Positions 19,849 through 64,000 of a DNA stretch of 64,000 nucleotides are shown here, one piece after another; positions within the stretch are counted from its first letter, which is position 1; the number at the start of each line of letters is the position of its first letter. The stretch is from contig NC_087251.1 in assembly GCF_037042905.1 (NCBI RefSeq), positions 33,234,001-33,298,000 of the forward strand, written 5' to 3'. A program made the position numbers and the translations under genes. This DNA comes from Lytechinus pictus (Eukaryota). The notes under the pieces are model-generated. The model worked only from the letters and a program-made list of their open reading frames with translations, ran no database searches and was not told the DNA's origin.

Positions 19849-22800
19849 AAAATGGTTTTAGAAAAGAAAACGGGCACATTGTTTTGTCAAGACAATAATG
19901 CATGCAAGAGTGTACTGTACGTACCCCTGTACTTTTATTGATAAACATTTTGAACTGATGTATGAATTCTAGATGTTGGTGTTGGTGACTTTCCATAGTT
20001 GTGATCAATCAAATAAATCGCGAAGGTTTGTGAAACAGGACTCAGCTCCCTCTCTAGTGAGGATGTTCTCAAAGATGTGCCGATGCATCTTTGGAGTTGA
20101 TGCATCGGTGAAAGGAAAGGATTCACCAACGTCATTCTTGATGGGTACTGCTAATTTCTTTAGGGACCTTTATCCCATAGGTGGAGAGAAGAAAGATCAT
20201 TGGAGACTCATTAAATCTGAAAGCCCAATTACAGATTAGATGAGGAGAAGATTTATTGAGTCAAGGTATATACCCATGATGGGATAGTTTAAGAGCACGC
20301 CTCTCCTCCTTCATCTTCTTCAACCAACAACCAATTTTAATCCCCCTTCCATTTCTTTGAATCTCCTTACAGTTCTAAGAAGTCTTTGGAAAGAGAGAGA
20401 GGGGGGGGGGTTATACTTATATCTCTTAAATTAACCCCAGTAATGTAAAAACATTTGAAATTTACATTATTAATTCTCTTGATCACGGTAACCATTTGCC
20501 AAATATTGTCTAAATAATTAGAGGCACAAACTACAATTTGCTTTGTAATAATTAATGTGTATCTTTATTTATATATTTATTCAGATGAAAATGTAGATGT
20601 TACTTGGTTTATTTTATAGAGAGAGAGAGAAAAAAAAACCATATTCTATCTTTGTAGTCTGTTTTATTGTTTGTCGTTCCTAGCAACCTTGTGTCTATGT
20701 ATCATTGTATGAATTAAATTACGCAGTAACAAGCAAATATCCATGGTATACACCGTTTTATGTATTTTTAAAAATGTATATAGAAGAAGAAAGAGTAATG
20801 TAATGAATTCACTTTATGAAAGAGTGGGAGAGAAAGAGAAAGGGAAAGAGAGGGAGAGATATAGAGAAAGGGAGGTGATGAGAGGGAGAATGACAATAAA
20901 AATGACCCCAAGTAAAATTAATAAAAGAATTAATAAGATAAAGTATGTGTGCTCCTAAACCATCCTATCATCAGTATACCCCTTGACTCTTGTAATCATC
21001 ACAATATTATTGATATTACACTTTTGGTAAGGAGTGACTGCAAGATTCACAAAAATGCAACCTCCTGAAACTATTCATTCATCACCATTCTAAATAATAA
21101 AGAGAAAAACAAAACTTAATTACTATACACGGTTAAGGTTGCTTATCTCTCATTACCATAGCTGTCACCAGATCAATTTTGAGCAACTCCTTTAAAAAGC
21201 CCACTTGGAGATGGCTATAGAATACTGACTGCTTAAATGTCTGGGCCCTACAATAACAGAGTTCCCGTGGCCATATCATATTGATTGATTTATTGCGAAG
21301 GCAGACTTCATTTACATTTTACTATGCCGGAGTGGTGGAGTGCGGGAGGGCAATTTGAAATTCGATTTCTACATGTATAGCATGCTCTCTCTTTGGCGTT
21401 CAGTCGTTCCCCCACTCTGCCTGGTCTCGTGGGTTTATCAGTGTGTGAAGTCCCCCACTGCACCAGGGTTCATCCACACTGCAGGAGATAATGGTATAAG
21501 GAAATTATAATAGACGATATGCGGCCAATATGTATGTGTTCACACAGTACATGTATATGCCTATTATATTAATGAAATAAAATCTTGATGATACACATTG
21601 CTTTATCTGGAAAAGAACAAAATGCTTAGATAAAGGCACCTTTATTTATGAGTCATTTGAAGGCCATTGTCACAAGTTGGCACAATATCTTTCCATTCAT
21701 ATTTGTTGGGCCAGTGCTCTCTTTAACAAATGTTTCTTTTCAATGACCTCCTTCTCAAAGAAAAGGCATCCAGAACTTCTATTTTTCAGAATGATCATTA
21801 ATTTTCCAAACCAATAATCACACTTTTTCAAAGTTTGAATATATGAGACCAATTACCCTAGTAATCTATATGTTAATCATATCATGTACATACTAGTTAG
21901 TTTTATAAAGTGCGATTGTGAAAACTCCACTGCACATCATAAAGATGGCATGGAAACATTTTCTCAGTTTTGATAGTGGTGTAAATGGTGTGTCAAACTT
22001 GGTTTGGATTCAGGCAAACAGGAAACATCTCAATGCATCAGTCTGAAAATAACTGTTCAACGAATGAAAAATAGTGAATAATTGAATGTACAACACTTGA
22101 AATAGATGGTTCAAAAGAATGTGATGAAAATATCTCGAGGCATACTTGTTTTGTTCCAATTACCTTCCTTTTTTTCAGTTTGAAACTAGTTTACATTTAC
22201 TCCTTATGAGATGAAGTCATTCAGCTTTTTCATATGAAATAAACCTTTGATTCATTTTTAAAATGCTATTTACCGTATTAATTTCATTGAGACTATCCTT
22301 TTATTCTATAATATTTTTGGGGTTGCATGATTTTTTATGCCTGTTTGAGAGATTTCCAAGTCAGTGTTTTGGGTTAAAGTTTATTATATCTACTAATTAA
22401 AGTATTTGGCTTTCTGTGAGTCCATCTAGTAATAATGGCTTTATATTTATCAAGCATTATGCCCAGATGAAATGTTGATGTACATGTATGCCATATGAAT
22501 TTTCATGCAATGAGGATTGAATATTTTCAAATATTGAAATCGATTTCCTGTAAATATGAAATTGCACTGACCATTGAAGTGGCTGATAGTACATGTATGT
22601 ATGTCATATAGAAAATGTGTCAATAATATTGCCCACAGACTTCTGCATAATACATAATAAAAAATAGTTCTTGTCGATATGAAGTATTATAAATATCATT
22701 CCAAGTCCTTCACCTACAATACTGTCCAATAAATTGTCAGAGAAAGGATTAATGTTTAAATTGATAATTAATGTTATTATACTGCATAATACATACATGT

Positions 22801-24494: not shown

Positions 24495-24680
24495 GGGGGG
24501 GGTGTTTCATTAAAACTGTTTATGAGTTGAGAGTGACTTTGAGAACGACTGGTGAAGCTTTCTTACCCGCTAAACTATCGCCAATGAACATTTTGGTGTA
24601 TACCATTTACTGCAAGGAAGGATCACCAGTCGTTCTTAAAGTCGCTCTTAACTTACGAACAGCTTTATGAAACACCCACC
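24495..24680. mobile_element. Palindromic about 180-bp MITE (gggtgtttcat...atgaaacaccc)
   Basis: Near-complete hairpin; second copy at about 38957-39140. Confidence 0.75.
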
Positions 24681-27230
24681 TGAAATGCTTTGTTTCTATT
24701 TACAAGCTCATGAAAAGATGTAATGCTCTCCAATTATCTTGGCGGAAGCAGTTCACGGAGTGAAGTAAGTATAGATTAAATTGGGGGTTGGATGAAAAGG
24801 TTTAGTATTTTATGGAATTGCCCACTCAAGCATTTTTTTTATATTGACTAATGAATACATATTTATTTTCAGGTTTGCTCACATTGATTCACGAAACAGT
24901 TCATCATTGCATTTGCATCTTGAATTTGATTCTTACTATCCATTGCAAAATTCTAGTCCATGTCTTCTTTCATTTTCAAGTCAATCAAAGTTTGATTTCA
25001 AATAAAGCATAGCCAGACTTTTACACACTTGATAAATCATAATCGAAAATGATTGCATAACTTTTTGTAATCCATAAGATCTGTGATGATTTGGAAGTTA
25101 ACAAGTCCTGAATTTTATGGGAAACCTTCCTATTTTTCTTGCACAATGAGTAATTAACTTACAATGGTTTTTTATGTATGCTCTATTATTTGATGGATAT
25201 GAAATGATCTTTCAATTGTGACCAGCCAAAAATTTAATTTGTTTTTAGTGCTAGAAATCCTCGATTCTAAAATTATCAATTAATCTTTATTTCAAATCTA
25301 TCAGTGATTCTTCTTATTACATCATGCTCACCTTTTTCTTTTTTTAAATCTTAATCAATGTCACATTATTCTATTTTGTTCGTTTGGGGCTCTCTCTTTA
25401 AATATACATTCATACATTTTCTTTTATTTTAATCAGGTGTCAATTTATGGATTATGAATAAGGCTTCATTTAGTGCATCTTGCTTGAATATGTTTAAATC
25501 TATTTCATATGTTCATCCCCGTTTTGAGCATAGAAGTTTAATGGTAAGGAAGATATGTGCCATTATTTCACATTAATTTTCATTCTTTTATATGTCTTTT
25601 CTAATTGCCTAATTTTCCATCCACTCTCATGTTTTATTTGAAATCAATAATTGATATCGGATCCACTAAAACTCATGCAAAAATGTTTCAGTTAAAAAAT
25701 TCTTGTCTCACTTTTTTTAAAAAAGAATATTATTGAGTGATATCATTCAAACTTTGACTCTACTCTCTTATTGGAAACTAATCATCTAATAAATCCATTG
25801 CATCGTGCATGATGCTACATCACAGTTATTACAAATATCATCATCATAATTTCATAATCAATGTTTTCATTTTCAGCATCAATGTTCAGAATGCATTATT
25901 AACCAGTTGTAAACATGTGTAAGGCAATTATTGCGAAGAGGAGTTTAGGACCTCAAAATCTATTGCCAAATGCCATGGACCTTTCCCCCCCTATTTTTGT
26001 TTGCTCACCAAGAAAGAAGTTTAAGTTCATAAAAAGTGAAGAAAAAATGGCCCTAAACCTTAATCAGAAATAAAGCTACATGTATATTTTTGATAATATT
26101 CAGGTATTTTTTTCTCCTCTAATATCACATTGACTTTGTACACAAAATATTGTTGAGCAATGTCACTGTATAACTGAAGGAACCTTTAATGTTATCTTCT
26201 ACAACCATTATCAATATCTGCGTGTTTACATAGCTCAAGTGGATGATAAGCTATATTATGCATGTGTAATGAGTAGAAATACTTGTATGAGATTAAATTT
26301 TCATATACATTAGTTCCTCTTTTATATAAAGATATACTTGAAATGAGTACTTGTTCTTGCAATAATTTTTTTTTTTATCCATTCCTGTCATCTGTCTATG
26401 GATGTTGAACATGAAATAGAGATAGGTACCTTCTTTTTCTTATTTTGAATTCTGCTTTGTTTGCAAATTTTATATATTGTTTAATTTGAAGTGGCAATAG
26501 ATATATATAGTGAACAAGCACAGCAGGAATTTGGTGGAAATATAATTTCAAAAGTTTTTTATTCTCAATTTTGAATAAATGACAGAGTGCCACACCCCTT
26601 TATGACCTCTCCCCATTTCGCCTTCTTTGTCTTTCAGTTTATTTTATTTCTTTATAGTGGTAGGCTATCTTTCCATATTACAGCACAGATGGATATACAA
26701 AAATTTAAAGGGTACAATGAATCTCAAAGACCAATGACCTTCTAATTCAAGGGTCATGGATTAATTTAAGCCAAGTGTCATCTCTATATCCATCTTCATT
26801 CTTCTGCAGGAGGCACCTACCAATTCTTCCCCTATCCCCTCTTGAACATTTCGAGCCTGATCCTTTTGTCTTAATTTTGTAGGCCACTGGGCCTAGTTAT
26901 GAACGTTATTATAGACCTCTTCTATGCAGGATGCATGCCCAGTGGGTTATCTAGGGGAATAGACACTGAGCAAAAGCTATGAAAATTGCGACCCTTCCAG
27001 TGTTGCCCTGGGGCAATGCTGAAAATCGTGTCTCCTTTAAAACTGTTGTGGCCACTGGCTCCTTTGCTTGTTCTTAAATATTAAACTTTCTAATTTGCTT
27101 CATTTTTTTTAAATTTCTGTTATTCTTTTTATTTTGCTTTACTCTTGATTTTCCCAATTTGATTTTCCCTTACACCACTATTAAAGTGCAGTGGTATGTA
27201 TGCGACAGGACTTTAACCTTGGTAACAATT

Positions 27231-28780: not shown

Positions 28781-31187
28781 TCTTATTATTGATTCCAGAA
28801 ATCGGCCTGCTCTTTACTTGATTTACATATGTACACTTTATAGATAGCAGATTATGCAATCTTTAGCTTACGGTATACCATAGTTGACGTTGATATATAC
28901 AGTATTGATCACAGCTTTTGTAATACATTGTCCTGGTGAGCATAATATGTGTAACACAAAGATTAGCAATCATATGCGCATTTAATTCAAAATACTGACC
29001 AGGTAACCAATCAGCAGTGTCTGTATTTGATATTCATTGCTAAGGTTTGTGTTACGGGTCCCTGATCTTAAAATGGTGTACAAATAGCAAATAGGCATGA
29101 GTGTGATGGTGCGACATTTCGCATGAGGTGAAAGAAAGAAAGATGCTCTATAATGAGGTGTTAGCTGAGTCGAATAGAGTATCTTTCACCGAATGTGAAA
29201 TGTCGCACTATTGCACAAATAAGAATATTTGCTATTTGTGTTGTAAAATGCCTCGGAAGGGAAAAATATGAACAATAATGAAAATAAGAGAATTTTTTTT
29301 TTTAAAGTCCCTCAAACGTGCATTGGATCTGCAATGACTATGCGCATATAGCCAGTAAACCCTGTGCATCTGCATTTACTATAAAAAGCGCATGCAATGC
29401 GTCGAATCCTATTTTTTATAGTGACATCACCCTTTCTTGACCCGTGCAAAGGTACATTATGGACGGTACATTTTGGATGGTACGTGTTCAATGGTGCAAA
29501 TGTTTAACATTCAGCCTCCCATTTGCTTGCGTACAACAAGCTAAGTAAGCGTTGTACATACAATACATAATAAATCAGCGAGATAGCCTCACTGCTATAA
29601 CCTTGTTTACAAATTGTTTATGTTCATCAAATCATGGAGGCATATGAAAGTTGATAGGATTACTAGTTATCAGAGACATGGTGAGGGAGATGTAGGATTT
29701 CCGAACTAAGCTATTCATTCAAAATTGCATTTTTGTTGGCCATACATGTAGGTAATAACTCTATGAAGCCATATGTGGCACTGTTCTTCTGATTGTAAAG
29801 CCTTTGGTAAATACATTTATCTGAGTAAACATGCAAGCGTAACTAAGTATATTTGTTTTGATTTATATATTGATACTACAGTTTTATTGATATGATAGTG
29901 TAGTTTAATGATATAAGCAGAAACTATGATTTTAGTGATATAATTGATAGGTCTCATTGTTTATCTTTGTTGTAAAAAGTTTATTACAATAAAATTCATA
30001 TGGAACCTAATTAGGGTATTTCAAGAATTTGAACCATGCAAAACGAAAAAATGGGTCGTAAATTTCAATGCTTTCAAGAGCCAAGATTATGTTGAATTGT
30101 CTATTTTTTCACAAATTTTCACCATCATGCATGTTCACATGTAATTGTATTGTGTTTAATAAAAGGGTCGGCTCTTTTATAATTAAAGAAAATGACATGG
30201 GTTATCAAACCACTCTTCAGTATATACATACGCAAAAGACGCAAAAGACATTGAAAGCCATATGTTTATCATGTACATCTTTTCCAGCAGCAACATTCTA
30301 TCGCACCCTGTTCCGGTGAATCTAGAAAAGAAACCCTAGATTATGCCTGTGCGTGGGCCGATCGACCACTCTGAATTCACACACCTTAAGATATGATTCT
30401 ATTGCTTGTAAGGTCGGTTAGAAACCAGTATATGGGGTAGGGCTGTTTTGCAGCCATTGCAGGGAAGGTACTTCACCCTGCGGGGGTTCGCTGGGACATG
30501 TAGACCAATTGGTGTGATCGATCGTTTGCTTAATTCCCCGGGTGTGGAATTAATATCCGTTTTTGTGTGCTCATCGGGTGATGCAGAAAGCAAGATACTT
30601 TAATCACCCCGCCGAGTCATCCTGGATCTGATTTCTGTTAAATATATATATTTTTTGTAAAGAATGGAGAAAGCAACAAATTTTAATCACCCCGGCGAGC
30701 CATACTGGCTCTGATGTCAGTAAAATGCATATATTTTTATAAAATGGAGAGAGTTAGATGTAATGCGTAAGATGGGGATAAGTGTCACTCTGGGATGTAA
30801 TATTAATTATCGATCTGCATGTGTGGAGAAATTAATTGTGGATATTTTATGCACTTGCATCCGTCCATGTTATAAAGTGTATCATTTGTGCAAACATAGG
30901 CCTACTTTTGCTCAGCTGGTCAAATAAGTGGAGGTGGCTTTGTAGATTTCATTGAAAAAAATAGATTACATCAGAAATTATTTCATACACTGCATTTCAA
31001 CAGGCTGTCAGTATTCTGTAAAATGATGATTTATAGTCACAACAATAATTTCAGAAGGATATTATATAGATGAATTAGGATGAGCTGTTTATATTGGTTT
31101 GTAATGTATCCTTTTATGGTCTTATATTTGCATGTTCGAGGTCAAATTCACCTACAGGTATGAATGAGAGTAGTTTGATGATATCAT

Positions 31188-31498
31188 GGCCCGTATTCTG
31201 AAGTCGGGTTTAACTTACACTCAGGTTTAAAGTTGTGGTTTAAGTATGGATAGCCAATTGTTACATAAATCACTAATGGTAGAGATATCATATTTCAGCT
31301 CATTTGGCTCTCAAATCATTCATAATTGTCTAGGAAGTATAAATAGATGATTGTCTTCACCACCCATGAATCAGGAAAGAGCAAAGTAAACAAAAGAAAC
31401 ATACAACTTAATAAAAATTTTGACACATTTGGCTTCCCATAATTTTAGCACAGAGTTAGACCATGGTCTAAGTTAAACCTGACTTCAGAATACGGGCC
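31188..31498 (+). mobile_element. GGCCCGTATTCTGAA-TIR MITE
   Basis: ggcccgtattctgaagtc...gacttcagaatacgggcc, flanked by at/at. Confidence 0.85.
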
Positions 31499-34400
31499 AT
31501 GACATGTGCACAGTACACATGCTTGCATACATAGATGCAACTCTCTATACTCCACACACAGTGAAAATATATTCATCATATTTTATTGATCTGTTGGTAA
31601 TTATCACCGCTACAATCACTCTGTTGTGGGATTATTGAATGGCTTTACCAAGTGCAGGTGGATTTGAAAAGATGGTACACGTAACTGGAAAATACAACCT
31701 GGGTCTTTATTTTTCATGCAGTTAATGGTATTACTAGAAATCTGAATCACAAGATAGTAAATTAAGCCTTTTGAATTGAGTCGATATATATCTTTTTCAT
31801 TGTCTTAGATTGATTAACCCAATTACACATGATTAGACTCACCAAAAAATCTTTGTTAGCATATAAATTATTAATCATATTCAAATATAATTACATTGAT
31901 TACCTGTATATGTGGAAATTATGAAAGATGTTTGGGAATTCCATTGACAGGCAAGAAAGATAAATATCAAAATTGGCAGCTACTGTACCCTGTGCATGTT
32001 CATTTTGAAATTTGTTACTTGATGATTTGCTACTGAAATTATTTTTAAAACAAAAATAGAGATCTTTAGATGATATGAACTGAGCAACTATTCAATTAGG
32101 TGTGCTTATGTTCATGTGATCTAATGTGAAGAAATTAAACATTCTGCTGTATGCGGTTTACTGTATAGTGAGTAATTTTTCTGGCACTCAAACAAAAGGT
32201 TAATGGTTTTAATCTTATCTTGGCCCAAAGGTCTGTCATTAATGAGTCGAATTATGAAAGGTAAACAAAACATCTGACAACATTTTGTAGATTTACTTTA
32301 CGTGGAAGATTTGGAAATTGATGATCTGGGAAGAATTTCACAAAGAGTTTTGCCAGTGGTTTTCATTCACTAATGTGCTCTCGACCAATCAGATGCAAGG
32401 ATTTCCAATAGCTTATAACGTCTGTCAGTGGAAATCAATAAAAAAAAATCATGAAATGCTCCCCTGTACTCTAGCTACTTGCCTTGACTGTTCCATGCAG
32501 AAAGGTATTGGCATATATGTAATTTTGCATTCAAGCTGTCATAATGAGAATTCATAATACAACCACTCGACCATTTCAAACAGAATCAATTTTGTAGTTT
32601 ATTTTCAATAATGAAGCAGCCATATACTAGTGATTACATGCTCATTGTGTTGTAGCCAGCGCTGGTTTCCTGTCAAATTTATCAATTCTGTCTCTCCCTT
32701 TTCACAGCTTGTTCAGCAGTATTAATTAGATGAATTCACCTGCGATAGTGTGCACGTCACTACAGTTTACATGTTGTAATGAGGTGAAGTTACAATGGAG
32801 TCCAATACATGTACAGTACATGGTAGAGCTGTGTAGGAGTGGTCCATATGACTGAGATTTTAATTTCAAAGTGCTGTGATTTTTAGATCATTTTAATATT
32901 TTCCATGAAGGAGGTAATAGTAATTGAAAATTTTGCAAATGTTATGCTACGGTCGCAAATACTGTACCCTTACCCACACCGTACTAATGATTTTTATACA
33001 TGTATAGCAATATGGTTTGTACTGTGTTCGTTAAGATATATGTGACCGTAGCATTAGACAGAGAGTGAATTAATGTCCAGCTATTGGGAATTTACTAAAC
33101 TGTACAAAAGACAAAAGTATGCAAACAGTTATAGTTAATGATTTTTTTTTTTTTTATTTGTCCAACTCTTTGGTAAATAAATGATACAACCTGTACATGA
33201 AAAAGTGCTGAAGAATTGCAGAATTTCACATTTCAAGTAATGCTTTGTAGATGATTTGACTCTCCTAATCATTTTTTTGAAATTACATCAGAGGTGCAAA
33301 ACATGGACTTGAAATGTTTAACTATCCAGTATTATATACTGTCAAATGAAAATAGCATGAGATACATAGACATGGAGCCGCAGTTAAAAAAAACCAAATG
33401 TACACAAATGTCTATTTCTACATGTATGCGAGTAGTAAACCTAGCCGGGAGCCATTAACAGATGCGTGAGAAGAGGGTTCTAATTTGCTCTGAAGCCTTA
33501 ATTGGATCAATGGGTTGTTGAGGGTGTATGGCCTTAGCGCCTTCCATTAGCTATGTATTCTGTTGCATATAGGATGCGGCAATGGATCATGGCTGCGAAT
33601 AGGGGTTTTTATGGCGGCACCTGCTGTCTTGACGTTTAATTTGCATTTTAAATTAAAGAATTAGATCGCGATAATTCCTTGGGGTGTTAGATTACATGTA
33701 GAGTCTGGCTGCGGAAGGGTGCTTATCATGTACATGTATGTAGGCAACTACTTGTATGTTGTGAAGTGCTTGATTTTGAAAAATTATAGAAGCAATTTAT
33801 ATGACTGATATGTATTCTTCTGCTGAATGGCAGAGATCAAGTAAAAAAAAATGAAATGCTCAAAAGAATCCTCAGAATTCCCCATTCACTATTAAAGGGT
33901 GATAGCTTTTCCAATGTTGCATATCTATTATAGGCAATCATTGTGAAAAATAGCCCCCCCCCCCCCAATTTTTTTTTTACATTTATGCCTTCAGTTATTT
34001 GACTAATGTCTCAGGATTAGCACATAAAGTATTTGTCTCAAGAAGGTAACTTGCCTGCATGTATTATGAAACGCATGACCTCTTGATGACTAAAATTCTA
34101 TGATGTAATCTTTCCCTAGATGATAATAAAAGATTATTTCATTGGTATAGAGAAAGAATGTGCGAATCATACCTAATTTTTCTATACAAATTGAATAATC
34201 TATTTTTGATTAATTAACAGATTAATATCAAAATGCAAAAAGAGCTCATGTCATAATGATTTCTTGCATCAAACATTCATTCAATGTTGGGTTTATATTT
34301 CATTTACATGTAGAAAATCATACGTTTGATTTTATACATGTTTGTCACATTTTTTTAATCTGTCAAAATAAGATACACTTTCACTTTCTAATCATTTATC

Positions 34401-38956: not shown

Positions 38957-39140
38957 GTGGGTTTTTCATAAAGCTGTTCATAAGTTAAGAGTGACTTTGA
39001 GAACGACTGGTGATCCTTTCTTGTGGTAAATGATGTTCACCATTATATGTTTATTGGTGTTTATTTAGCATGTAAGAAAGGATCACCAGTCGTTCTAAAG
39101 TCACTCTTAACTTGCGAACAGCTTTATGACACAGTCACCT
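38957..39140. mobile_element. Palindromic about 180-bp MITE
   Basis: Copy of 24495-24680. Confidence 0.7.
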
Positions 39141-39282
39141 GATTTCCAGTCTAAAACCTCCAACCAGGAAAGGATATTTCCAGAAATCACATCTCCAGGC
39201 TTCCCTTGTTCCTTGACCATTTTCTCAAGCTTTTTACCTTTTCACTTGGACATCATCCCTTGTCTTCTCACTCCCGTCTCAG

Positions 39283-39474
39283 GGATGCAGATATCAGGAG
39301 CAACTCCGGGACGGATGCGGTCCAGTACCTCCAGTTCCAACGCTACCTGATCATCCTGATGATCATCATCACCTTCCTCAGTCTAGTGGTCATCCTCCCT
39401 ATCAACTTCAGTGGCAGCCAGGAGCTTGGAACAAACAACTTTGGTCGCACCACCATCACCAATATCCCTAACAA
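39283..39474 (+). CDS. TMEM63: TMEM63 coding exon 5 (DADIRSNSGTDAVQYLQFQRY...LPINFSG...FGRTTITNIPN)
   Basis: Inside ORF 39206..39550; ag/gtatgt boundaries; conserved CSC1 motifs. Confidence 0.95.
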
Positions 39475-40148
39475 GTATGTCCATATACAAATAGTGCACA
39501 TCACTGGGGGCATACGATTAGTAAGAATTACACACACGAGGTACCTGTGAACAGTTCTAACATGCTCAAGGCAAAGCCAAGGGCGTTGGGACTGTTGTAG
39601 AGGTAACAAGTGTGTGTAATTATCCAATAAAATCCATTACCAGTCAATGGAAGTAGTAGTCATTAGTACCAGTGATTAGCAAAAAGTATCACTTATGCAT
39701 AAATTAGCACAATTTATTATTTTGTAAAAAAATAACCATACAGCCATGCATATTACATCCCACACTACCATTTTTCCAAATTTTTACAGTGCTTGCATGA
39801 TCCCAAGGGGGTGATTTACCCCCCCCCCCCCCCAACCACAGAATCCGAAATAAGCCCGGCCTGGTTAGCAAGGCAAGCAGTTATTTGAGAGAACATTCAT
39901 GGAGTGGAGTATGCTCTTGAAGATCTTTGCTGGAATGCCTCCAGGGTATGGAGAAAGTGCTTGGATAAAGTGCTTACAATGTGTTTGGGCATTCTATAAT
40001 TCGATGACTGGGGTTATATCTGTGAATTGCTATTTACGACCAATGTATTACACCATATGTAATAGCAGATTATTATTTTTCTTGTTTGACCAAAAGTTTA
40101 CATGATCTTAATATGACTCTGCTTGAAAATTCGTTCCTTGTCTTCCAG

Positions 40149-44595: not shown

Positions 44596-46321
44596 TTAGC
44601 CTGAGCCATATCGATTATTTTGAAAACCGGCGTTCGACAGCTTTAATTCGACCAAACATCGATGCATCCAATTTTGAAGGCAGGGAAAATCGAGCCAATT
44701 ATTTTTGCTCCGGCGCGGCCGTCGATGCACGCACTGCGACGGTATGCGCTTGGAGGGTAAGTGTTGCACAAGCAAATGACAGAGCAAAGTTTGTTTGTTC
44801 CATGATCACGAACACAAAAAAGGGAAAAAATATCTTAAACAATGATATTTGCAGATGACAACATATAAGTTTAAAATGAAACAATATTAAAGACATGAAT
44901 CACGCAGAATCGATCCAAATGATTTTCCGTCAACTAGCATTCGCAGTCCAGACACGCACACACTCACTCTCATGAAACGACAGGCGTGCTTGCCGGCAAA
45001 ACAAGTGCTCTACCAGCGGAGAGCACTGCCGCTGGTAGAGCACTGTAACTCGCCTGAGATGTAGTTGGATCCAAAATGAGCTCCTAATTGATGGGCATAA
45101 TATATCATACCTAATTTTCTCTGGATGGTCATTTGAATTGGTATTCAATGCTGATATAACGATTGTGAGAAAAGATTATGGAATATGAGTTATGACGATG
45201 TTCGAGAATTAATCCTGATTTGATTGATAATCCATTTTTGATTTTAGACACAAGTGAAGAGCATGCGGGGATCGAAATAAAAACAAATGTCTCGGATCAA
45301 CTCTAAATTTATATAAATTATTATTGGATGTTAAATACTTGTAATTACGATTTTTTTTAATTTTATGGCCATACTAAAAATATTGACAATGTCAGCAACG
45401 TATGTTATGTTCATATGGAAGTACCGGTATTAATACTGTCATTATCTTTATTTTTATTCCATCTTTATATCTAGAAGTCTCAGAGAAAAGAAGCACAATG
45501 CGCATGCGCTTTCGATGACGTATGACATATTTTCCATTCATGGATTCAGAGCCCAAAGTTGGGCACAAAAGCGCTTCAAATTGATGGAAAAAAATATCAA
45601 ACGTAATTTTCTCTGTTTTGTGATGTAACATTTTATTATATGGTGATATTACGATCATGAGAAGAGTTTATGCATATTGACAATGTTCGAGAATCAATCC
45701 TGACATGATAATTTTTTATGTAGACAAGTGCACTCACTCACGTTGATCGTAATGTGCTGTCCGTCATTAAAAATTGAAATGAAATACAAATGTTTCACAT
45801 CAAGCTCTAGATTCATGTTAATGATTATCATATGCAAATTATTGTGAAAATATTATGATTAAATAATGTTCTATGGTCATGATATTAATATTGTTCATGA
45901 AAGCAAGGTTTATTTTACGTTGATCCCGTCATTTTTCTGGTTTGATTAAAGCACAGTACTGCGCATGCGCGATCGATGGCAATGACTCCATTTATGAATT
46001 CATTGTGCATAAATTATCTCAGCACGCACAGACGAGTAAGACTCAAACTCTGAATGAAATAAACTTCAAACTAATGGTGAATAGGCATCACAATTACACA
46101 ATTGGTTTCATTTTGGGGGGAATATAATCAAGTAAGTAGTAGTTAAGTTAGACCGTACTGTTTATTTTGATGATTGTGTGAACCAAACGAAACGGCCTGC
46201 AGACGTTTACTTTGATCTTTTTTCTTTCTTTTTTTTCGATGCACCAATTTTGCAAAATCTGCACTGGCGCTTGATGACATCGATCAAACACCGATTTTAA
46301 AATCGATTCGACTCAGGCTTA
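44596..46321. mobile_element. Non-autonomous hAT-like element inserted into a MITE
   Basis: 8-bp TSD ctttccat (44588-95, 46322-29); TIR ttagcctgagccatatcgatt / taagcctgagtcgaatcgatt; host MITE halves at 44372-44595 and 46330-46376. Confidence 0.85.
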
Positions 46322-48628: not shown

Positions 48629-48799
48629 TGTTATGTTCTTGTGTTGTGGTTCTTAAAGGGATACATAATAATGAGATAATAGCACAGCGATGTAGAGTAG
48701 TGTCTGCCATTTAATGTTACGCCATCTTGCTGTCTCTCGCGCATGCGTACAAGGCTGCACATGAAGCTTGCGTCGTTAGTCTTCAGTTCATACATCACA
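48629..48799 (-). repeat. 3' LTR (171 bp)
   Basis: Direct repeat of 58593-58763, no difference seen by eye. Confidence 0.95.
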
Positions 48800-48812
48800 T
48801 TCCTCCCCTTTT
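48800..48812 (-). promoter_or_regulatory. Polypurine tract
   Basis: aaaaggggaggaa on the minus strand, abutting the 3' LTR. Confidence 0.9.
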
Positions 48813-49674
48813 AATTGGGAGCATATCCTGCTTCATTTCAACTGGCTAATGTAATACATTCACTACCCATGTATAACAATAGATACAACAAGTAACACTG
48901 TATAACTTGTAACCAGATAACAGTAATACTAAACTAGGCATGCTAGGCTAAACTTCGCCATAATACTTTGCTTACTCAACAATTAACCATAATCAATTAA
49001 ACATACATGGCTATTTCAAACTAACCTCTTTGAATATACTTCATCCTAAATCTCACTTTATAAAGAAATAGCTACAGGTGGCATTTTACTTCATTGGGTT
49101 ATCTGTTAATTGTTCACTAGCATAAACTGTGTGACTCTTATCACATGAATCAAATAATAATGTAATCCTTAAGACTATATCATATACTAAACCTTATCAA
49201 TAAGTTTGCATAAATGTGTTTGCATCAATGAATAATGTCTCGTGAATGACTCCAAATACAATTTTCACGACTCATATAACGGCTAAAATCTAAATCTCAG
49301 ACTAGTTTACTATATACAATGCGAGTTATGTGCTTTTCATATTTCTCCAATAAACAAACTTTCAAGATTACAACACTTGTGATTGTCATTATTTTCCTCC
49401 ATATCAAATTTAAAGGTAACACTTTTTCTCTACCTATAGAACTTCATTCTTCTCTCCACCCTCTATTTTTTTTTTTTAATCATTCAACTATCAAATTGAA
49501 TTACCAATTTATAACATACCTCTTTCCTTTTCTTTACAAATTAGTATCAATACCAACTAGAAGCCTTCTAACGTGGCTATAAGTGTTTATCCTAACTGTA
49601 TGTCCAACAACTATTTACAATCAGGTTAACAGCTTTTTTCCTTTTTTTTTTTTTAGCTGCTATTGTGTATAGCT

Positions 49675-51294
49675 TTAATGATATACAATGAAATCTCTTA
49701 ACTTTGAGGGTGTCTTTGACTTCCGGTTGGACATTCGTCTTTCTGACATAACTTTAGAATTTGGCATGTTTGGCATGACAGCTCCATCAGAATCACTTAG
49801 TGACTCTGTTTGGACCTGCTGTGACATGGCTGTAGTATCAGCGATACTCTGTTCAGTGTTTGAAATTAAGGATTCGCTAGTACTAGGTGCCATATTGGGA
49901 TTTTCTGTTGTCTGGCTTGGATACTGCGTCTGTTGAATCAGAATCTCTGGTTGTAGATTGGTGTTCTGATCAGGCATTTCTTCCTTGTCATGATCATTTC
50001 CATGCGATAGAGTGTAAAGTCTAATGTGATCCACATGGCGGCGTACCTCTCTACCATCCTGTAACTCTATCACGTACATGACTTCATTGAGTGTTTCGGT
50101 TACTATTCCTCTGAGCCAAGTTGGTCCGGCTGCAAAGTTCTTCACCAGAACAGTATCATTCAACTTGAACTGTCTCATCTTTGAGCGCTTGTCTGCCGCC
50201 TGTTTCATTGCAGATTGCTGCTTCTGAACCGACTTGTGCAGGTTCGGACGGACATGATCCATTCTACTTCTGATCCTCCTTTTGAACATTAGCTCACTTG
50301 GTGTTTTCATGGTAGTTCCTTGTGGAGTTATCCGATAGGTCATTAGGAATACTTGGATGCGCATCTCCAATGATGTTCCACTGGTTTTCTTAACTCCACT
50401 TTTCAAGGTTTGCACAGCCCTTTCAGCAAGGCCATTGCTGGAAGGGTGTTTTGGGGCTGTTTGCACATGTTCTACATTGTTGTTGAACAGGAAGTTCGAA
50501 AAGTCTTCAGAGACAAACTGGGTGCCGTTGTCACTTACGACTGTTTCTGGAATACCATACGTTGCAAACAGGCGTCGCATGGCAGTGACTGTAGCAGCTG
50601 CAGTGGCGTGTGCTACTCTAATAGCTTCAATCTACTTGGTGTATGCGTCAACAACAATCAGCACGTTCTGGTTATCGATGTAGGCGTAATCGATGTGGAT
50701 CCTACTCCAGGGTCGTTCTGGGAACTCCCATGGGTGGATAGGGGCAGGTGGTGGGCTTCGCTGGTGCTCCTGACAAGTTGTACAGATCTTCACCTTCTCT
50801 TCCAACATTTTGTCGATGCCTGGCCACCATACAAAGGATCGTGCAAGTGCTTTCATCTTGACTATGCCTGGATGAGTCCCATGAAGTTCATCTAGGATCC
50901 TTTGTCTCATCTGCTTGTTGTCTGGAATGACCACTCTATGCCCCCATAATATGATGTCATCCTCAATCGAGAGTTCCTCCTTCTTCTGCGCAAAGGCTTT
51001 GAGCTCTAGTGGAACGTTCTTGGGGTTTGGCCATCCATTCATCACATAGGCTGTTACTCTTGCGAGAACAGGATCCCTTTTGGTGATTCTTCTGACTTCA
51101 TCGGCCTCAACTGGTCTTGTGTCAATATCCAGCATGTTGATTTGAACTGGCGGCTGCTCATCCAGCTCTGCAAGACTCTGATGCGACCACACTGTTTGAT
51201 CATCTGCCAAGGGTAGGCGTGAAAGGGCGTCTGCATTCTGGTGCTGTTTACCTTCCTTGTATATGATGTCATAGTCGTAGGCTGAGAGGATCAT
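49675..51294 (-). pseudogene. Gypsy RNase H C-terminus and integrase, interrupted by an in-frame TAG at 50632-50634
   Basis: NADALSR, HGTHPG...CTTC (HHCC), RIHIDY, VSDNG, SNGLAER; ORFs 50632..51294 and 49675..50580 share a frame. Confidence 0.93.
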
Positions 51295-51650
51295 GTGCCC
51301 TGGCTAACCGTGCAGAGGCCATGGGGCTTGCAGGTTTGGTGTCACCGAATATGCCTAACAGCGGCTTGTGGTCTGTGATGATTGTAAATCGTCTTCCGTA
51401 CAGGTACTTGTGAAATTTCTTTACACCGAAAATGACAGAGAGTCCTTCTTTTTCATATTGGGCGTAATTTGCTTCACTTCTGGTGAGCGTGCGTGATGCA
51501 AATGAAATGGGCTGCTCTAGACCGTCTGTTCCTACATGGCTGAGGACTACACCTAGACCATAGGGGCTTGCATCACATTGCAACAACAAAGGCTTACTGG
51601 GGTCGTAGTGTGTCAACACTGTGTCACTCTGAACCAGTTCCTTTGACTTC
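51290..51650 (-). pseudogene. Gypsy RT connection and RNase H segment downstream of the DNA-transposon insertion
   Basis: [32 protein letters not shown]; frameshift at about 51297. Confidence 0.93.
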
Positions 51651-54600
51651 TAGTCGATTTGACACTTTCCTAACCTAGAAATGTTCTTTCCGATGAAGTT
51701 TTTTTCTTGATTCGTGTTCCTATGGGGTCCTAGAACAAATTCAGCTTGGTTGCCCAAAGTTGCCGTTTGGGCAATTTTGCTAATTTGCATAAATCCAAAA
51801 TGGCCGCCACATGCCCTCTTAAAAAACTAACTTTTGAACCCCTTGCCCTAAAATGATGAGGAAGAACTTCTTTATGGGTTAAGGTGTGTGTAGAATCTCT
51901 TTCTGCTTATCTATTTTGCAATATAAGGTCATTTTCAGGTCAAATTCAAGATGGCCGCCAGATGACGCCATCATAAATATTAACTTTTGAATCCTTTGCC
52001 CCAGAATCATGAATAATAACTTTATTCGTGAGTCATTTGGCATGTTGATTAAATTTTTGATGTAATTTTGCAATAAAGGATAATCTTCAGATCAAATCCA
52101 AGATGGCCGCCAAATGCCATCTTGAAAAGTTACTTACCGAGGCTTATAGTGTAAGAGCTTATGTAAGGGGATTTCAGTAAGAATACTCATTTCTTTTTAT
52201 TAATTCTCAATTTTTAGTTCAAGGGGAAGCCAGATCTGAGATGTTGTCAGACGTTCGAAATTAACTGCTCATCTTAGAATGAATCCTCGTTAGGTTTGGG
52301 CTATGATCAATATCGCGTGTACTTCTATTTCTTTTAATGTCCATCCATACTTTTGTACTGAAGAGGCTTTAAAGTCTTTTTTTAATTTAAAATTATTTTC
52401 TCCATATTTTTCCTAAATCAAAGTGTCCAATGATAGGTAGGCATCAGTTCGTCTAGGGTCGCTGGGGTTTACATTTTCGATAGTGGCTGTAGAGCTCCGC
52501 TCTATAGAGTGGCTGTCTCTAAAGCAAATTTGTACAGATGAAGGAGGATGACGCTGAGACAGGTTCAAATAGTGATGCTGCCCTAGCCTTCCTCCTTGAT
52601 CTTTGGCCTGCCAATGTAGCATTATGATTATTTTCTGACGTCTTGACCCCTGTACTTAGTAGCTCTCCATAGATGACGACTATCATCTACATCTTCAAAA
52701 GTGTTAGTGTTTATGCCGGCCAAGTTTAATGTCACGTTTGCAGGTGTGTTTATAACGGAGGTGTGATCTATCTGGGGACCAATCACATAGCTCATCTTAC
52801 ATTGGTGAATCCCTTCTAGAATTTGCCAAAGTTTCAGTCGGCGAACATGCCCCCAACCACTTGAGGCACCTTTCACTAAGGAGCGAGAATAAGCTGGTGA
52901 TGCCAGCATGCACGTACGCTGAAGGGCCTTATATTTTTCACTCTGTCCTGCCATTTCATGTGCGGGATACGTCCGAGGCAGCTGACATGGAAGGTGTTTA
53001 GCCGCTTTTTTTTTTATCGGCGTACGTTTTCGAGGACTTATTTCCGTTCAGGAGCTTGGCCATGGCTGTGACAGATATTCCCATCCTGGTGCTTGTCTCC
53101 TTGTCCAGTGAAAAAGAACTAGAGACAGATAGTCAATCCAAGGTAGGTGAGGAGTCCACCACAACCAGACAAGTGCGTGCTGTTGATAGAGATATCTGGA
53201 GGATAGTCAGTGTCTTGAGTCTATCAGGATTTCTGTCTTACAGGCTGATGGGTGATCCAAACTCCTTACATGCACAGGACAGGTGGCTGTATTACTAGGT
53301 CTTGTAGACCTACTCCCGCTTCTTTATGAAAGGTTGAAGAGTTTCCCATCTGCTCTGGTACGGATATACATGTAGATGCCTTCTGTGCATCCGTGAAATG
53401 CATACTGAGGAAGCATGAAGAAGATCCCAAATGAGAGTCAGGGCCAGGCGCAGCATAATTGCTTCACGCCACTGCTCACAGGAACTGAGGGAAGCTACCA
53501 GATGTTTCAGCATTGTAGCAAACTGTGCTCATGGAATGATGTGACCATGGATCAGTCTTGGGGGTTTATCTTCTACAGGAGGCTAAAACGTGCACTCGTG
53601 CTGACCAAGTCAAAGGTTTTTGTCAGGACGAAAAGTCCAATGATTATTATAAAGGAAGGTAATAAGTTAACCAATTATCTAAAAATACGGAGAAATCACT
53701 TTTTGATTAAAAAATAGTACTTTGAAGTCCTTTCAATAGAAAAATATGGCTGGACATAAAAAAATGATGAGAATTCCCGAAATGGTTCATAGCCAAAACC
53801 TTGAATGGTTTCATTCTAAGGTGAGCGATTAATGCCGAAATATATCAACCATCTGACCATCTGAGACCTGACTTGACCACTAAAAATGGAGAAATTAAAA
53901 GAAATGAATCATTCTTACTGAAATACCCTTACATGAGCTCCCACACATAATAGTAACCCTCTTTAGGATAGCGGGTACTTTTTGGGGAGAGTACTTCTTC
54001 AAGGTTCAAAGTTCGATAGTCTCGGGAAGTAGTTTTTTTTAATATGGCGTTTAGCGGCCATCTTTTTTTTTAATCTGAATGATCCTATATTTATTACCAG
54101 AAATGGAATCAACATATCAAATAACTCACGAAAAGAGGTATTATTCATGATTCGTGGACAAAGGGTTCAGAAGTTATTTTTTCAAAATGGCGTCATCTTG
54201 CCGCCATCTTGGATTTGAACCGAAGATGACATTATATTACAAAATAGATAGCAGAAAGAGATTCTACACACCCCAAAACCCCTAAACAGAGGTATTACTC
54301 GTCAATCTGGGGCAAGGGTATCAAAAGTCAATTTTTCAAGATGGCATCTGGCGGCCATCTTGGATTTGACCTGAAGATGACCTTATATTGCACAAATGAT
54401 AAAGAAATCGATTCTACACCCCCCTAAACCCATAAAAAGAGTATTTACTCATCACTTTGGGGCAAGGGGTTCAAAAGTTAAGTCTTTAAGATGGCATCTG
54501 GCGGCCATTTTGGATTTATGCAAATTAGCAAAATTGCCCAAACGGCAACTTTGGGCAACCAAGCTGAATTTGTTCTAGGACCCCATAAGAACACGATTCA

Positions 54601-54671
54601 AGAAAAAAACTTCATCGGAAAGAACATTTCTAGGTTGGTGTATTGAGCCTATGGGACTGTCAAATCGACTA
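51651..54671. mobile_element. Non-autonomous DNA transposon, Academ-like (TAGT...ACTA, 3-bp TSD, long modular TIRs)
   Basis: TIR tagtcgatttgaca at both ends; ttc at 51648-50 and 54672-74; removing it restores pol frame [20 protein letters not shown]; imperfect arms at about 51651-52412 and 53680-54671. Confidence 0.85.
52425..53635 (-). mobile_element. Heavily degenerate RTE-clade LINE 3' remnant inside the Academ-like element
   Basis: Frameshifted pieces LTKTFDLVS, PVSSGVKQ, IRTRADGKLFNL, TYLG, MKWQDRV, KWLGHVRR, HLRYKHTCKRDIK and a C-terminal Zn-finger relic; the (Y/F)ADD region is deleted. Confidence 0.85.
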
Positions 54672-54674
54672 TTC

Positions 54675-55755
54675 TGGAAGGCTCTTTCTTGGTCTCCTCC
54701 CCACTTCAGGTTTGGATCTGCTTTGTTCTGGTCTCCCCGCTTCTTTGGCACTGAAGCATACTCTGCCTTCAACAGCGTTATTAGTGGGGCGATCTCTTTG
54801 GTCAAATTTGGTATAAACTTCCGATAGTAGCCCAGAAGTCCTAGGTATGCCTGTAGTTGACTCTGGTTCTGTGGTCTTGGAGTCTTCTTTATGGCTTCTA
54901 TCTTGTCCGGGAGTGGGCTAACTCCATGTTGATCCAGCTTGTGGCCAAGGAACTCCACCGAGTCCATCATGAACTCACACTTTTCCCTTTTCAGTCGAAG
55001 TCCATTACTCTCTAGGCAATGCAGTACAGCTTGCAAGTTGGCAATGTGTTCTTCATCTGTCTTCCCGCTAACTATAATATCATCTAGGTACGGGCGACAC
55101 ATTGGTATGTCAGCTAAGAGTGACTCCATTGCTCTTTGGAAGAGCGCAGGGGCTGTGGCTATACCAAAGGGTAACCTAGTGTACTGAAAAAGTCCTCTGT
55201 GTGTATTTACTGTGGTGTACTTCCTTGCTTGTTCATCAAGTTCTATCTGGTGGTATGCATGTGAAAGGTCCAGCTTGCTGAACTGTTGACCTCCACCTAA
55301 GTCCTGGAGCATATCCTGGAGCGACGGAATTGGGTACCGTTCCACCCTTAGAACTTTATTTGCTGTCAACTTATAGTTGCCACATATGCGGACTTTACCA
55401 TTTGGTTTCTTCACCACTACGATAGGACATGCGTAATCAGCAAACTTCACCGGCTCAATCACGCCTTGGTCCTGTAGCTCATCGATGGCTTCGTCAATTT
55501 TCTGGCGCATTGCATATGGGACTGGTGCAGCTTTGTAGAACCTGGCTTTATCTCCATCATCTTGAGGATGCACCTTTGCCTGGTAGCCTTCAAGTTTACC
55601 AACTTTTGAACAGTCAAACACTTGCTTGTGCTTCACTAACATGTCTTGTAAGGTAGCTTGTATCTTATGCACGGTTTCTGGATTGTTGGAAACATGTGTT
55701 TGAAGGTTGAGGCGATTCTGTAGGAATCTGTAGATTCCTTCTGGTGCGGCTTTGC
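54675..55755 (-). pseudogene. Gypsy reverse transcriptase
   Basis: ORF 54575..55792: PIVVVKK, RICGNYK, FSKLDL, RLPFG, YLDD, FLGH. Confidence 0.96.
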
Positions 55756-56372
55756 ATCCAGTCTCGGCCCAGTAACGCAACACCTTTCTCAACTACAAGA
55801 AGTGTCAACTTCTTTGGTGGTTGGCTGGCATCAAACTTGACTTCTACCATTGCCTCACCAATGATTGGTACTGATGACTCTGTGTATGTTTTCAAGGAAA
55901 CATTTGTTTGCTTCACATCAGCTCGATGTCCCAGTTTATGGAAATCCTGCTGCGACATCATCGTCCAGGGGCTTCCTGTGTCTATTTCTAAGTTAACTTG
56001 GATCCCATTTAGGCTTAGACTAGTCTGGAACGGTTCACTGTACTTTGCCATCTTATTTACCATTCCACCCCTAAGGTGTCTGAGTTCTCCACCAGGCATG
56101 TTTTCTGTCAGTTCTGCACCTTCCTCACCATTCAAGTGGTTTGCAGATTTCTTTCTAGATCTGTATTGCTTGATCTTCTCACACTGGCTGCGGGTGTGAC
56201 CCACTTGAGAACACTGATAGCATTTCTCATCCTTAAATCTACATGCTGACTGGCCATGATCACCTGAACCACATCTCCAACATCTTGAGGCAGGCTTTTC
56301 CTGTTTCTTTTGGCTTTTCCTGCACTTCCTGCTTCTGTCTTTGATGTGTATTTTTACGCGATGAGGACACAA
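55750..56372 (-). pseudogene. Gypsy nucleocapsid (2x CCHC) and aspartic protease
   Basis: CWRCGSGDHGQSAC, CYQCSQVGHTRSQC, LEIDTGS, LLGRDW; frameshifted relative to both gag and RT. Confidence 0.93.
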
Positions 56373-56961
56373 ATGGTTTACGCTGGCTTCTGCCCTGCAT
56401 CTTCTGAACTGTAGGTGACTGGGTCCCTTTACTCAATACCTTAAGCTTTTCAACATCTCTGTCTGCTACCTCCATAGCTGTGGCGGTCTGAAGTGCATGT
56501 TGTAAGGTTAGGGATGACTCACTTAACAGCTTGCGTTGAATTGCGATATCCCGGCAACCCACTACTAAGCGGTCCCTAATCATGTTATCTAATTCTTTGA
56601 AATTACAGCCTTCGCTTAATTGGCGCAAATTTGCCACAAATTGCGGTATGGACTCATCTTGCTTTTGCACACAAGTGTAAAACCTATAGCGCTGAACAAT
56701 TTCGGTAGGCTTTGGTACGAAGTGTGACGTAAGCGTGTTTTTGCATACTGTGTATGTTTGATCTATTGGTTTACTCGGCTGCAAGAGAGCTCTGAGAATG
56801 TGATAGCTCTTGCTACCAAGATTGGTCAGAAATATCGCCCTTCTTTTCCCATCTTCCTGTATATTGTTAGCATCAAACCATGCTTCTAGGAGTTCAAGCC
56901 ATTCGTCAAAATTGTACCCATCACTCAGTTTGGGCACACTACCTATATGTTGGCTTGCCAT
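56260..56961 (-). pseudogene. Gypsy gag capsid region
   Basis: 233-aa ORF with Q..DESI..FVA.LR.L...C.F...IRDRLVVG gag motif. Confidence 0.9.
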
Positions 56962-58575
56962 AATTTTGTTTCATATGTTGTAAAAAATCCAGCTGTTAAC
57001 TTGATTGTGACTACACAATAGGTAGCTGTAACACCAAGTATATCTAGACTTATTGATCATAAAATATGATTTTGATCTTGCTATTGCGCGTAAGCAAAGC
57101 TTATTTTCTTAGTACATAATGCCTACAAAGCATTAATGTATACCTGAAACAAAGCTAGAACGACATATATAGTCCAACGATTGACAATACTATATCACTA
57201 CACACAACTGGTATATGTGGGACTACTCCCGTGTCGTGGGGCTGCAGTTATTCAATTGCATAGCAAATATAGGCACTGGGTCCTGGTCCTAATTGCTAAG
57301 TCTTAGACTATAATCGATCAACACTTTGGGCCTAAGTTAGTCCTACAACTGATTAGACCTAGTCCTGTTTTCTTAGACTTGGACCTTGTTTGGTCCTATA
57401 ACTCAGAGACCCGGTCCTACTTTAGACCTGCTTATAAGATTATACCTGGTCCTGCTTTTTAGACCTGGAACTTCTTGTTGGTCCTAAATTTCATAGGCCT
57501 GGTCCTACTTGCATAGTCTTAGACCAGTAACTGGACCAAAATATGACTACGGCATAAACTCAGCTTAAGTTTATTGTTATTTACTGTATAAACCTCAGAC
57601 CTCAATTCAGTCTTGGACTTGGTCCTGTTGGTTCTAGACCTAGATCTATAATTGCTATTTTAATGACCTAAATCTAAATACTACCTAATTGAACCAGTGT
57701 AACAACTCACCAGGGCATGTACGGTACTTTGTTACATTAAACCAGATCTATGTTTCGACTAATTCTTTAGTCCAACACGTTGCAATTACAACCATATAAT
57801 GTATTTTTGGACCTGGACTAATTTGTCTTAATCTTACCTTTAGTCTTAGATTAAGCTACAGTTCATAATGAATAAACGCTGTGTTTATAATTATTCATAA
57901 TAAGTCCATCAAAAAGTCTTAAAGTCTTTGATGTTTTGTTTCTGTTTCATTCATTACATATGCAGCTTGGCTTGATTTTGTATTGAGTCTTCTTGGCACG
58001 ACAACTTTGTCCTGGCTTGCAGACTCAAAACTTGCTTGGCTGGACTTGACTAATGAATGCAACACCGTCTGGGCTGAAACGGGCAAAAGAGGTCTCGGCT
58101 GGGTCCTCGGCTTGGTCCTTGGGCTCTGTTGGCTGTTGCTAATTGCTGCTGGGCCTGGGCTGGGCTGCTTTGGAGACTTCTGGCTTGAAGTTGGCTCCAA
58201 TTTGCTATGACTATGTCAATAGTCAAATGTAGAATCTAACAAGTAACATCTAGGGCTATGCATAATTTACAGCAATTGTCAATGTTATGCATATGCTATG
58301 GGCTGTAGACACTACATAACTCGGTCTCAATATAGGCTGGCATGAGCGGTGTGAGGCTTCTGCAAAGCGTCCATTTCAACAAGCCACATTCATCCGCCAT
58401 CCAAATTACGGCTAGGCTGCGATTGTCTAATCACACTATGCTTGCTTGCACTGCAGTGTATCAATGACAATGACAATGTCCATGACAATATCCGCGGCCA
58501 ATTTCCAAAAGCTATCCGGAATGCATGTCACTAACTGGAAAACAAGTCCAATCTATACTCTCATTTTTATCCCTG

Positions 58576-58589
58576 CATCCTCGTCGCCA
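58576..58589 (-). promoter_or_regulatory. Primer-binding site, complementary to a tRNA-Ser(GCU)-type 3' end
   Basis: tggcgacgaggatg 3 nt inside the 5' LTR; matches the recalled ...CAUCCUCGUCGCCA end of metazoan tRNA-Ser(GCU). Confidence 0.8.
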
Positions 58590-58592
58590 AAT

Positions 58593-58763
58593 TGTTATGT
58601 TCTTGTGTTGTGGTTCTTAAAGGGATACATAATAATGAGATAATAGCACAGCGATGTAGAGTAGTGTCTGCCATTTAATGTTACGCCATCTTGCTGTCTC
58701 TCGCGCATGCGTACAAGGCTGCACATGAAGCTTGCGTCGTTAGTCTTCAGTTCATACATCACA
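58593..58763 (-). repeat. 5' LTR (171 bp)
   Basis: TG...CA, direct repeat of 48629-48799. Confidence 0.95.
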
Positions 58764-63206: not shown

Positions 63207-63680
63207 GTATGGTCGGGGGTCCTAAAGCTACGCACCACTCCATTGCGCATGCAATTTCAGTGGCAAAATAAATGCGCACTCTAGCTCTGTGTGTGGAACT
63301 GTGACTGCAGAGTGACGAACGATTCCTATTCAATTTTTCTACAGAGGCTGCAATAAATCATTGAATGCAGAGAAAACCAACAAATGTTTGGAATTTTAGA
63401 GTTATATTCACTTTAATTTCATATTTTCCTATAATAATATGGACATATTTTAGAAATTGAGACACAGGAAATACTATTTCTTTGCATGATAAATCGAGTG
63501 CGTAGCTTTAGGACCCCTTCTACATTGGGCGGCGAAATCAAGAGGTGTTCGGAAAACACTGCAGGATTTTGGTATTAGTGAGTTTTGTGATATTATCTTC
63601 TTGGTTAAGAATCTTTAGAATATTTATTACAAATTAGTGAAAGATAATTTGTTCAAATATTAAAATTGGCATAGTTTTTA
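63207..63680 (-). mobile_element. Truncated inverted copy of the 3240-3770 MITE
   Basis: Long reverse-complement match, e.g. ctctgtgtgtggaactgtgactgcagagtgacgaacgattcctattcaa. Confidence 0.85.
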
Positions 63681-64000
63681 TCATAATAACGATATGGAGG
63701 TAATATTTTCAGATTTTTGTAGTTTGCCGTGATTGATCACTTTTAAAACTTATAGGTGAATCATTTATGATGTGAGTTTGAACACATTTACTTGTACATT
63801 TGATTGACATTGATGTATTTTTTTTAAATCAGATTGTTGAATGCTTATTCTTATTTTAAAAATGTGAGAAAATCACACTCCCTTGACTGGGATTTGAACC
63901 TGGGAACCTGGATTGCATGACAAATGATCTATGATTATTTGAAATCCTACCAATTATGATACCATATATCATATCATATTATTATTCTTAAAAGTCTATG

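Follow-up and report, generated by a model that had tools for sequence, protein, structure and literature searches.

How does a reverse-transcriptase (RT) relic full of frameshifts and stops come to lie inside a DNA transposon that is itself inserted in gypsy pol, in a host element with identical LTRs? The question is raised by a locus in a 64,000-nt stretch of Lytechinus pictus DNA (the whole of which is called the window here; all positions refer to it). A preliminary description had proposed that an Academ-like non-autonomous transposon had captured a decayed RTE-type LINE in the manner of Pack-type elements, and had then carried it into the gypsy element as cargo. The three insertions can be considered in turn, from the outside inwards.

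The gypsy host and its interruption

The outermost layer is a gypsy element with a K02A2.6-like pol, on the minus strand (48629–58763), which has a 5-bp target-site duplication (TSD), GCAAA, on both sides and is interrupted by the insert. Its LTRs, likewise on the minus strand, are each of 171 bp: the 5' LTR (58593–58763) is followed by what we take to be a PBS-like sequence, and the 3' LTR (48629–48799) is preceded by a purine tract. As had been claimed, the LTRs are identical (171/171; with no differences, the 95% upper bound on their divergence is 1.7%), and the gypsy RT shares 99% identity with P0014, a protein of Lytechinus pictus. The sequences on either side of the insert share one reading frame and match consecutive residues of P0014 (638/639), so the claim that removal of the insert restores the pol frame is borne out. 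Contrary to a reading of the host as intact, it carries, besides the insert, three further frameshifts (near 56.3, 55.75 and 51.29 kb) and one stop (near 50.63 kb) over ~3.9 kb, some of which could be assembly errors. Two long non-coding stretches are also present in this element, one of ~1.6 kb before gag (56970–58590, with an 88-bp tandem repeat at 57351–57510) and one of ~0.9 kb after the integrase region (48800–49675). Elsewhere in the window, an exon-like ORF on the plus strand (39155–39550) matches the Pfam family RSN1_TM (E 6.7e-11); we take it to belong to a TMEM63/CSC1-type gene, which probably overlaps the window and within or close to which the gypsy element may be located.

The insert (51651–54671, 3021 bp, with no strand assigned) has the form of a non-autonomous, Academ-like DNA transposon with terminal inverted repeats (TIRs). 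Its ends are perfect inverted repeats over the terminal 14 bp (TAGTCGATTTGACA), giving TAG...CTA termini, and they are directly flanked on the plus strand by TTC at 51648–51650 and again at 54672–54674. Among the 119 inverted pairs in the whole window (outermost, perfect, of at least 14 bp and within 6 kb), such a flush 3-bp duplication was found for only two, the other being an AAA case nested in another inverted repeat. The borders are independently confirmed by contigs from public sequencing runs: in all four runs analysed there is a joint (51647 to 54672) that skips exactly 3024 nt, which is the element plus one copy of the TSD. Gypsy copies without the insert therefore exist, and represent the pre-insertion state. 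The extent of the insertion and its TTC duplication are thus as first described. Because the divergence of the host LTRs is below 1.7%, the last jump of the insert was recent on the LTR scale, being later than the insertion of this young gypsy copy, as had also been suggested. No long ORF was found inside the element, and no second copy of it within the 64-kb window.

Two imperfect inverted arms make up most of the insert, and their lengths agree with the ~0.75 kb and ~1 kb given in the preliminary description: the left arm (51651–52411, plus strand) pairs with the right arm (53681–54671, minus strand) with 93% identity over the outer 202 nt, 83% over ~460 nt and 73% over the inner 270 nt. Each arm begins with the 14-bp terminal repeat, beyond which the ends diverge into a short type on the left and a long type on the right. 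Both contain subrepeats of ~150 bp, which are more numerous in the right arm (2.5 copies at 54131–54517, as delimited by TRF), and in the left arm CAA(G/A)ATGGCCGCC motifs occur at 51796, 51947 and 52099. Without the LINE and one copy of the LINE's own TSD (see below), the element would measure 1811 bp. The LINE does not stand in for a lost core, as had been supposed, but sits in the ~60-bp spacer of this 1.8-kb foldback structure.

Several other repeats of the window may be recorded here. An inverted pair of ~420 bp (6996–7408 and 12535–12934; 80% alike and 5 kb apart), with partial copies at 8958–9102 and 13031–13115, is possibly another old TIR element. A 460-bp repeat is present in two copies (63214–63681 and 3283–3746; 86%), the first of which has a perfect, MITE-like 20-bp inverted repeat (63216–35 and 63498–517). 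Further foldback, palindromic or duplicated repeats were seen at 9934–10651, at 19547–19849 with 31187–31505, at 24500–24683 with 38957–39142, and at 45063–45709, these including units ~490 bp apart at 45.1–45.7 kb.

A decayed LINE with its own target-site duplication

The innermost layer is a 5'-truncated and decayed LINE of 1200 bp on the minus strand (52435–53634), recognized by protein alignments and comprising the second half of the RT region through to the C-terminus, with a short 3' UTR. It aligns on the minus strand with residues 609–1041 of a 1045-amino-acid endonuclease and RT protein, and when its first 127 codons were used as a protein query, 13 RT proteins were among the 63 candidates. 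The closest relatives, P0003 and, from Batillaria attramentaria, P0004, are 58–62% identical to it over ~360 aligned codons, and full-length relatives consist of a single ORF of ~1045 amino acids with endonuclease and RT domains. From its motifs and from this architecture we take the core to be of RTE type, none of the listed relatives being named RTE; in its sequence from RT to C-terminus it resembles the RTE-type LINEs of marine invertebrates. No close intact parent was found among 125 RTE-like proteins, none of which outscores P0004, and the best identity to the core was 62% (with relatives aligned across frameshifts); this is a weak negative, from 8000 scored candidates among which most matches were unnamed. 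One RTE-like RT, P0217 (62% identity to P0003), is recorded as a protein of the bacterium Alcanivorax profundi, probably through contamination of that assembly.

Frameshift-aware alignment to four relatives gave 12–15 frameshifts, 4–6 stops and two deletions of ~26–27 codons in 1.18 kb, in keeping with the earlier account of an RTE-like core of ~1.2 kb full of frameshifts and deletions; the core is so decayed that none of its three minus-strand frames matched any Pfam family. As a control on the aligner, three gypsy relatives of ~60% identity were used, which gave 0–1 frameshifts and 0–1 stops per piece, all of them breaks already known in the gypsy element, with no extra calls. With this control, the count of disabling lesions (17–19 in 1.18 kb of the LINE versus 4 in 3.9 kb of the gypsy element) indicates that the LINE is far more decayed than its host, as had been asserted. 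Nothing about the LINE suggests a function, and we regard it as passive cargo.

How did this relic enter the foldback element? The preliminary description overlooked a perfect 10-bp direct repeat, GTCCAATGAT (both copies read on the plus strand), of which one copy (52425–52434) lies at the 3' end of the LINE, beyond the last ORF codons and a short UTR, and the other (53635–53644) adjoins the start of RT similarity, at the 5' truncation point where protein similarity stops. This is the longest of six direct repeats of at least 6 nt between the junction regions, and a 10-nt repeat was reached in only 11 of 5000 random draws of paired 41-bp segments. The marks of retrotransposition (a TSD of its own, 5' truncation inside RT, and a 3' end) are therefore all present, and from these we conclude that the LINE arrived by ordinary retrotransposition rather than by Pack-type capture, inserting itself, to judge from these sequence features, at the middle of a foldback element of 1.8 kb. 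The survival of a perfect 10-bp TSD through at least 10% decay is somewhat unexpected (a chance of roughly 1 in 10, by estimate), and its odds would be higher if GTCCAATGAT were the surviving core of a longer TSD.

Movement of the LINE with its carrier

Whether the LINE then travelled with the arms can be judged from other copies. Nineteen of the 24 public runs listed contain 5–26% of sampled window words, and the contigs of four (X1, X5 and X6 from organism A, and X16 from organism D) were aligned to the window at 80% likeness, those runs in which the share of words was small (organisms B and C, among others) being left out. What follows draws on 32 aligned pieces out of 6588, on 15 joints out of 214 and on 24 loose ends out of 1153.

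Among the 32 pieces listed, five cross a junction between arm and LINE and extend 31 letters or more to either side of it: two at the left junction (X1 rec2 and X5 rec19) and three at the right (X1 rec5, X5 rec21 and X6 rec27). These listed junction pieces differ from the window by 9.2–12.9% substitutions and a further 10–29 gap letters, whereas the listed gypsy pieces differ by 2.5–4.9% in X5 and X6, and by ~1% in X16. Since the insertion allele cannot be older than its gypsy host, junction pieces at 9–13% divergence must be paralogues. Several of them probably come from a single locus sequenced in two samples, so that the distinct bridged loci among the pieces listed are few, about two on the left and two or three on the right. 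Variants of the junctions also occur, namely a 67-nt skip (52447 to 52515) in three of the four runs and, in X5, a join from LINE to right arm (53609 to 54035). The bridging pieces listed all belong to organism A, the more distant of the two organisms from the window; none of those listed came from organism D. An 81-nt (27-codon) deletion in the LINE near 53055 is common to all five of the listed pieces that span it, four of which, at 3–15% divergence, are from organism D. The shared junctions and the shared deletion together imply that the decayed LINE was copied along with the arms before the jump into gypsy. The arm–RTE junctions that had been proposed as a check were thus found in diverged contigs of three samples, and of the idea that the LINE was captured early and then moved as cargo, the movement stands on these paralogous junctions and the shared deletion, but the capture does not, because the LINE has its own TSD, a feature that the preliminary description had itself named among the grounds for refutation. 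The greater age of the LINE relative to the gypsy element, as first thought, is likewise supported.

The summed depth over seven core bins was 545–40,248 in X1, X5 and X6, compared with 51–475 for gypsy bins, a measure that is not copy number; the copy number of the composite is probably high. Within the core, the depth at 53316–53466, near the second large LINE deletion, was 545–783 in the three organism-A runs, against thousands beside it; several deletion joints begin at 53368, and copies differ in this interval. None of the 32 pieces listed extends over a second composite in full, with a TSD of that copy's own. Two pieces (X1 rec6 and X5 rec22) match the right arm from 53648 and then have 67 unaligned letters at the position of the LINE, and another (X1 rec4) ceases to follow the window 13 nt beyond the TSD; some copies must therefore have another centre.

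Taken together, these observations make probable a history in three layers, in which an Academ-type foldback element received a LINE, moved as a composite and jumped into gypsy. It would have begun with an old family of ~1.8-kb foldback elements, non-autonomous and of Academ type (an empty ancestor of this size presumably existed); a 5'-truncated RTE-type LINE would have retrotransposed into the short central spacer of a single copy, leaving its 10-bp TSD. As the LINE decayed, the composite would have kept moving by means of its intact ends, giving rise to diverged paralogues with the same junctions and lesions; finally, one copy would recently have landed within pol of a young gypsy element, creating the TTC duplication. 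The insertion of the LINE with its TSD, its decay, the existence of paralogous copies with the same junctions, and the later insertion into gypsy are matters of observation; that an Academ transposase moved the composite in trans is suggested by the ends and the TSD.

Two other histories would give a similar final structure. In one, an empty element jumped into gypsy and the transcript of an already defective LINE was then inserted in place by an intact RTE acting in trans, its decay having been inherited from the template, so that no cargo would ever have moved. The perfect state of the LINE's TSD would suit such an origin, and the high core depth could come from a free family of defective LINEs; yet diverged contigs span both junctions in three of the four runs, which largely refutes it, and neither an empty-element joint (15 of 214 listed) nor a loose end bordering the LINE (24 of 1153 listed) was found, although neither result is proof of absence. 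We give this history hardly any credence. In the other, LINE DNA would have been copied in during gap repair or template switching, replacing the core, as in Pack-type capture. The LINE does fill nearly the whole interval between the arms, and it travels with them; but copying of that kind would be expected to bring in foreign flanking sequence or a LINE cut at random, whereas here the TSD copies are separated from the arms by just 13 and 36 nt, and the LINE has a TSD of its own, ends at its ORF C-terminus plus a short UTR, and is truncated at the 5' end. Capture is thus very improbable, and the three-layer history is the one that we adopt in what follows.

Affinities of the carrier and significance

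To which superfamily does the carrier belong? Judged by its ends, its TSD length and its subterminal motif, it is likely, with good confidence, to be a member of Academ, as the preliminary description had it. A TSD of 3–4 bp is given for AcademX (PMC10045372), and TTC/TTC fits this. In a curated bivalve library (PMC10294476; the first ~400 letters of each sequence), 13 of the 14 Academ entries listed, out of 100, start with TAG, and 11 of the 14 with TAGT, so that the TAG...CTA termini of the carrier fit the Academ starts among those 14; the other superfamilies listed there start with CAG, CAC, CTG, CGA, CCC, GAC, AG, TTAAGG or AAT. When compared by eye with Academ_A.marissinica_19, the carrier shares 38 of 42 nt at 51768–51809. 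A 14-nt subterminal word had three matches in that library, two of them in Academ entries, in both of which it is followed by ATGGCCGCC, and one in a TcMar entry without ATGGCCGCC.

Under the rule used by Repbase for non-autonomous elements (PMC4455052), terminal positions 1–11 should align, with at most one mismatch, to those of a classified family, and the TSD should have the same length. No entry of the one bivalve library had the same terminal 9 nt by exact match within the first ~400 letters of each sequence, and the best terminal match seen there to a curated Academ element by exact search was 7 nt (Academ_S.constricta_5). The terminal motif was likewise absent from supplement files 1–12, 24 and 25 of PMC10294476, within the first ~400 letters per sequence, and was not found in the literature; the terminal pattern had no matches in viral contigs. 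In metagenome contigs, it was found at six loci (L001–L006), all in one assembly and in animal-like marine DNA. These share the terminal 14 bp, a similar asymmetry of short and long ends, and 67–78% identity over the longer arm matches. Three of them are two-ended, and are of only 367–535 bp; one has a perfect TSD (L005, TAA/TAA), one agrees in two of three letters (L004, TTA/GTA) and one has none (L001). None of the six matches RTE protein, so these elements, alike in their ends to the carrier, differ from it in size and in having no LINE; as they come from another animal, they are silent on the empty form in Lytechinus pictus. The occurrence of the 14-bp terminus in another marine animal would point either to an old and widespread family or to horizontal transfer.

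The same history could have been played out with a carrier from some other TIR superfamily with 3-bp TSDs, or from an unclassified foldback family. No transposase is linked to the ends, the best terminal match seen to a curated Academ element in the library is just 7 nt, and a perfect 3-bp TSD is present in just one of the three two-ended relatives, all of which would suit such a carrier, as would CAAGATGGCCGCC-like motifs, which may occur also in other marine-invertebrate transposons. Against this, TAG ends with a 3-bp TSD fit Academ, the other superfamilies among the library entries listed start differently, and two of the three subterminal-word matches there are to Academ, both with ATGGCCGCC, which the TcMar match is without. 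We therefore consider a carrier outside Academ improbable. Compared with non-autonomous Academ (AcademX) elements, the Academ-like carrier is alike in its TAG...CTA ends, 3-bp TSD, long imperfect arms and CAAGATGGCCGCC-type subterminal motifs, and differs in being without a transposase and in containing 1.2 kb of LINE.

The hitchhiking of a retroelement in a DNA transposon is already known, and the process seen here is one of ordinary nesting and amplification. Ricksha, a human non-autonomous MuDR-type element, carries ERVL sequence and so shares with the present case a retroelement passenger in a non-autonomous DNA transposon; according to Dfam (PMC3531169), it picked up an ERVL 3' end long ago, and such cases are termed hitchhiking. 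The present case is set apart from Ricksha by an Academ-like carrier, by a LINE passenger that still has its own TSD, and by a recent last jump. Pack-MULEs, as described in PMC6446971, are likewise non-autonomous TIR elements that move foreign DNA, but their cargo consists of host-gene fragments, whereas the Academ-like carrier holds a retrotransposon that entered by its own insertion. No report of an Academ element carrying a LINE was found in the literature searched; such a family may be recorded in Repbase Reports or in Dfam entries, which lie outside that search. Nothing suggests a function for the host.

What the locus offers is a record of three layers, a LINE in a DNA transposon in an LTR element, from which the order of events can be read by means of three TSDs. 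It points to Academ-type transposition within the lifetime of one gypsy copy with LTRs as yet identical, and to the spreading of dead LINE sequence by a class II element, in copies that an annotation pipeline would treat as separate, old insertions of a LINE. We suggest, tentatively, that the LINE-bearing form might even have displaced the empty one and now be dominant and still mobile, in which case hundreds of apparent 'RTE' insertions in this lineage would go back to one ancient retrotransposition, which an active Academ transposase had since multiplied. Core and arm depths of similar order, the presence in organism D of a copy with just 3% divergence, and the absence of an empty-element joint among the best supported (15 of 214) would all fit such dominance. 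We know of no test of the mechanism of Academ transposition; if the LINE-bearing form were indeed dominant, LINE age landscapes would be distorted, and the composite would provide a traceable substrate for studies of Academ transposition.
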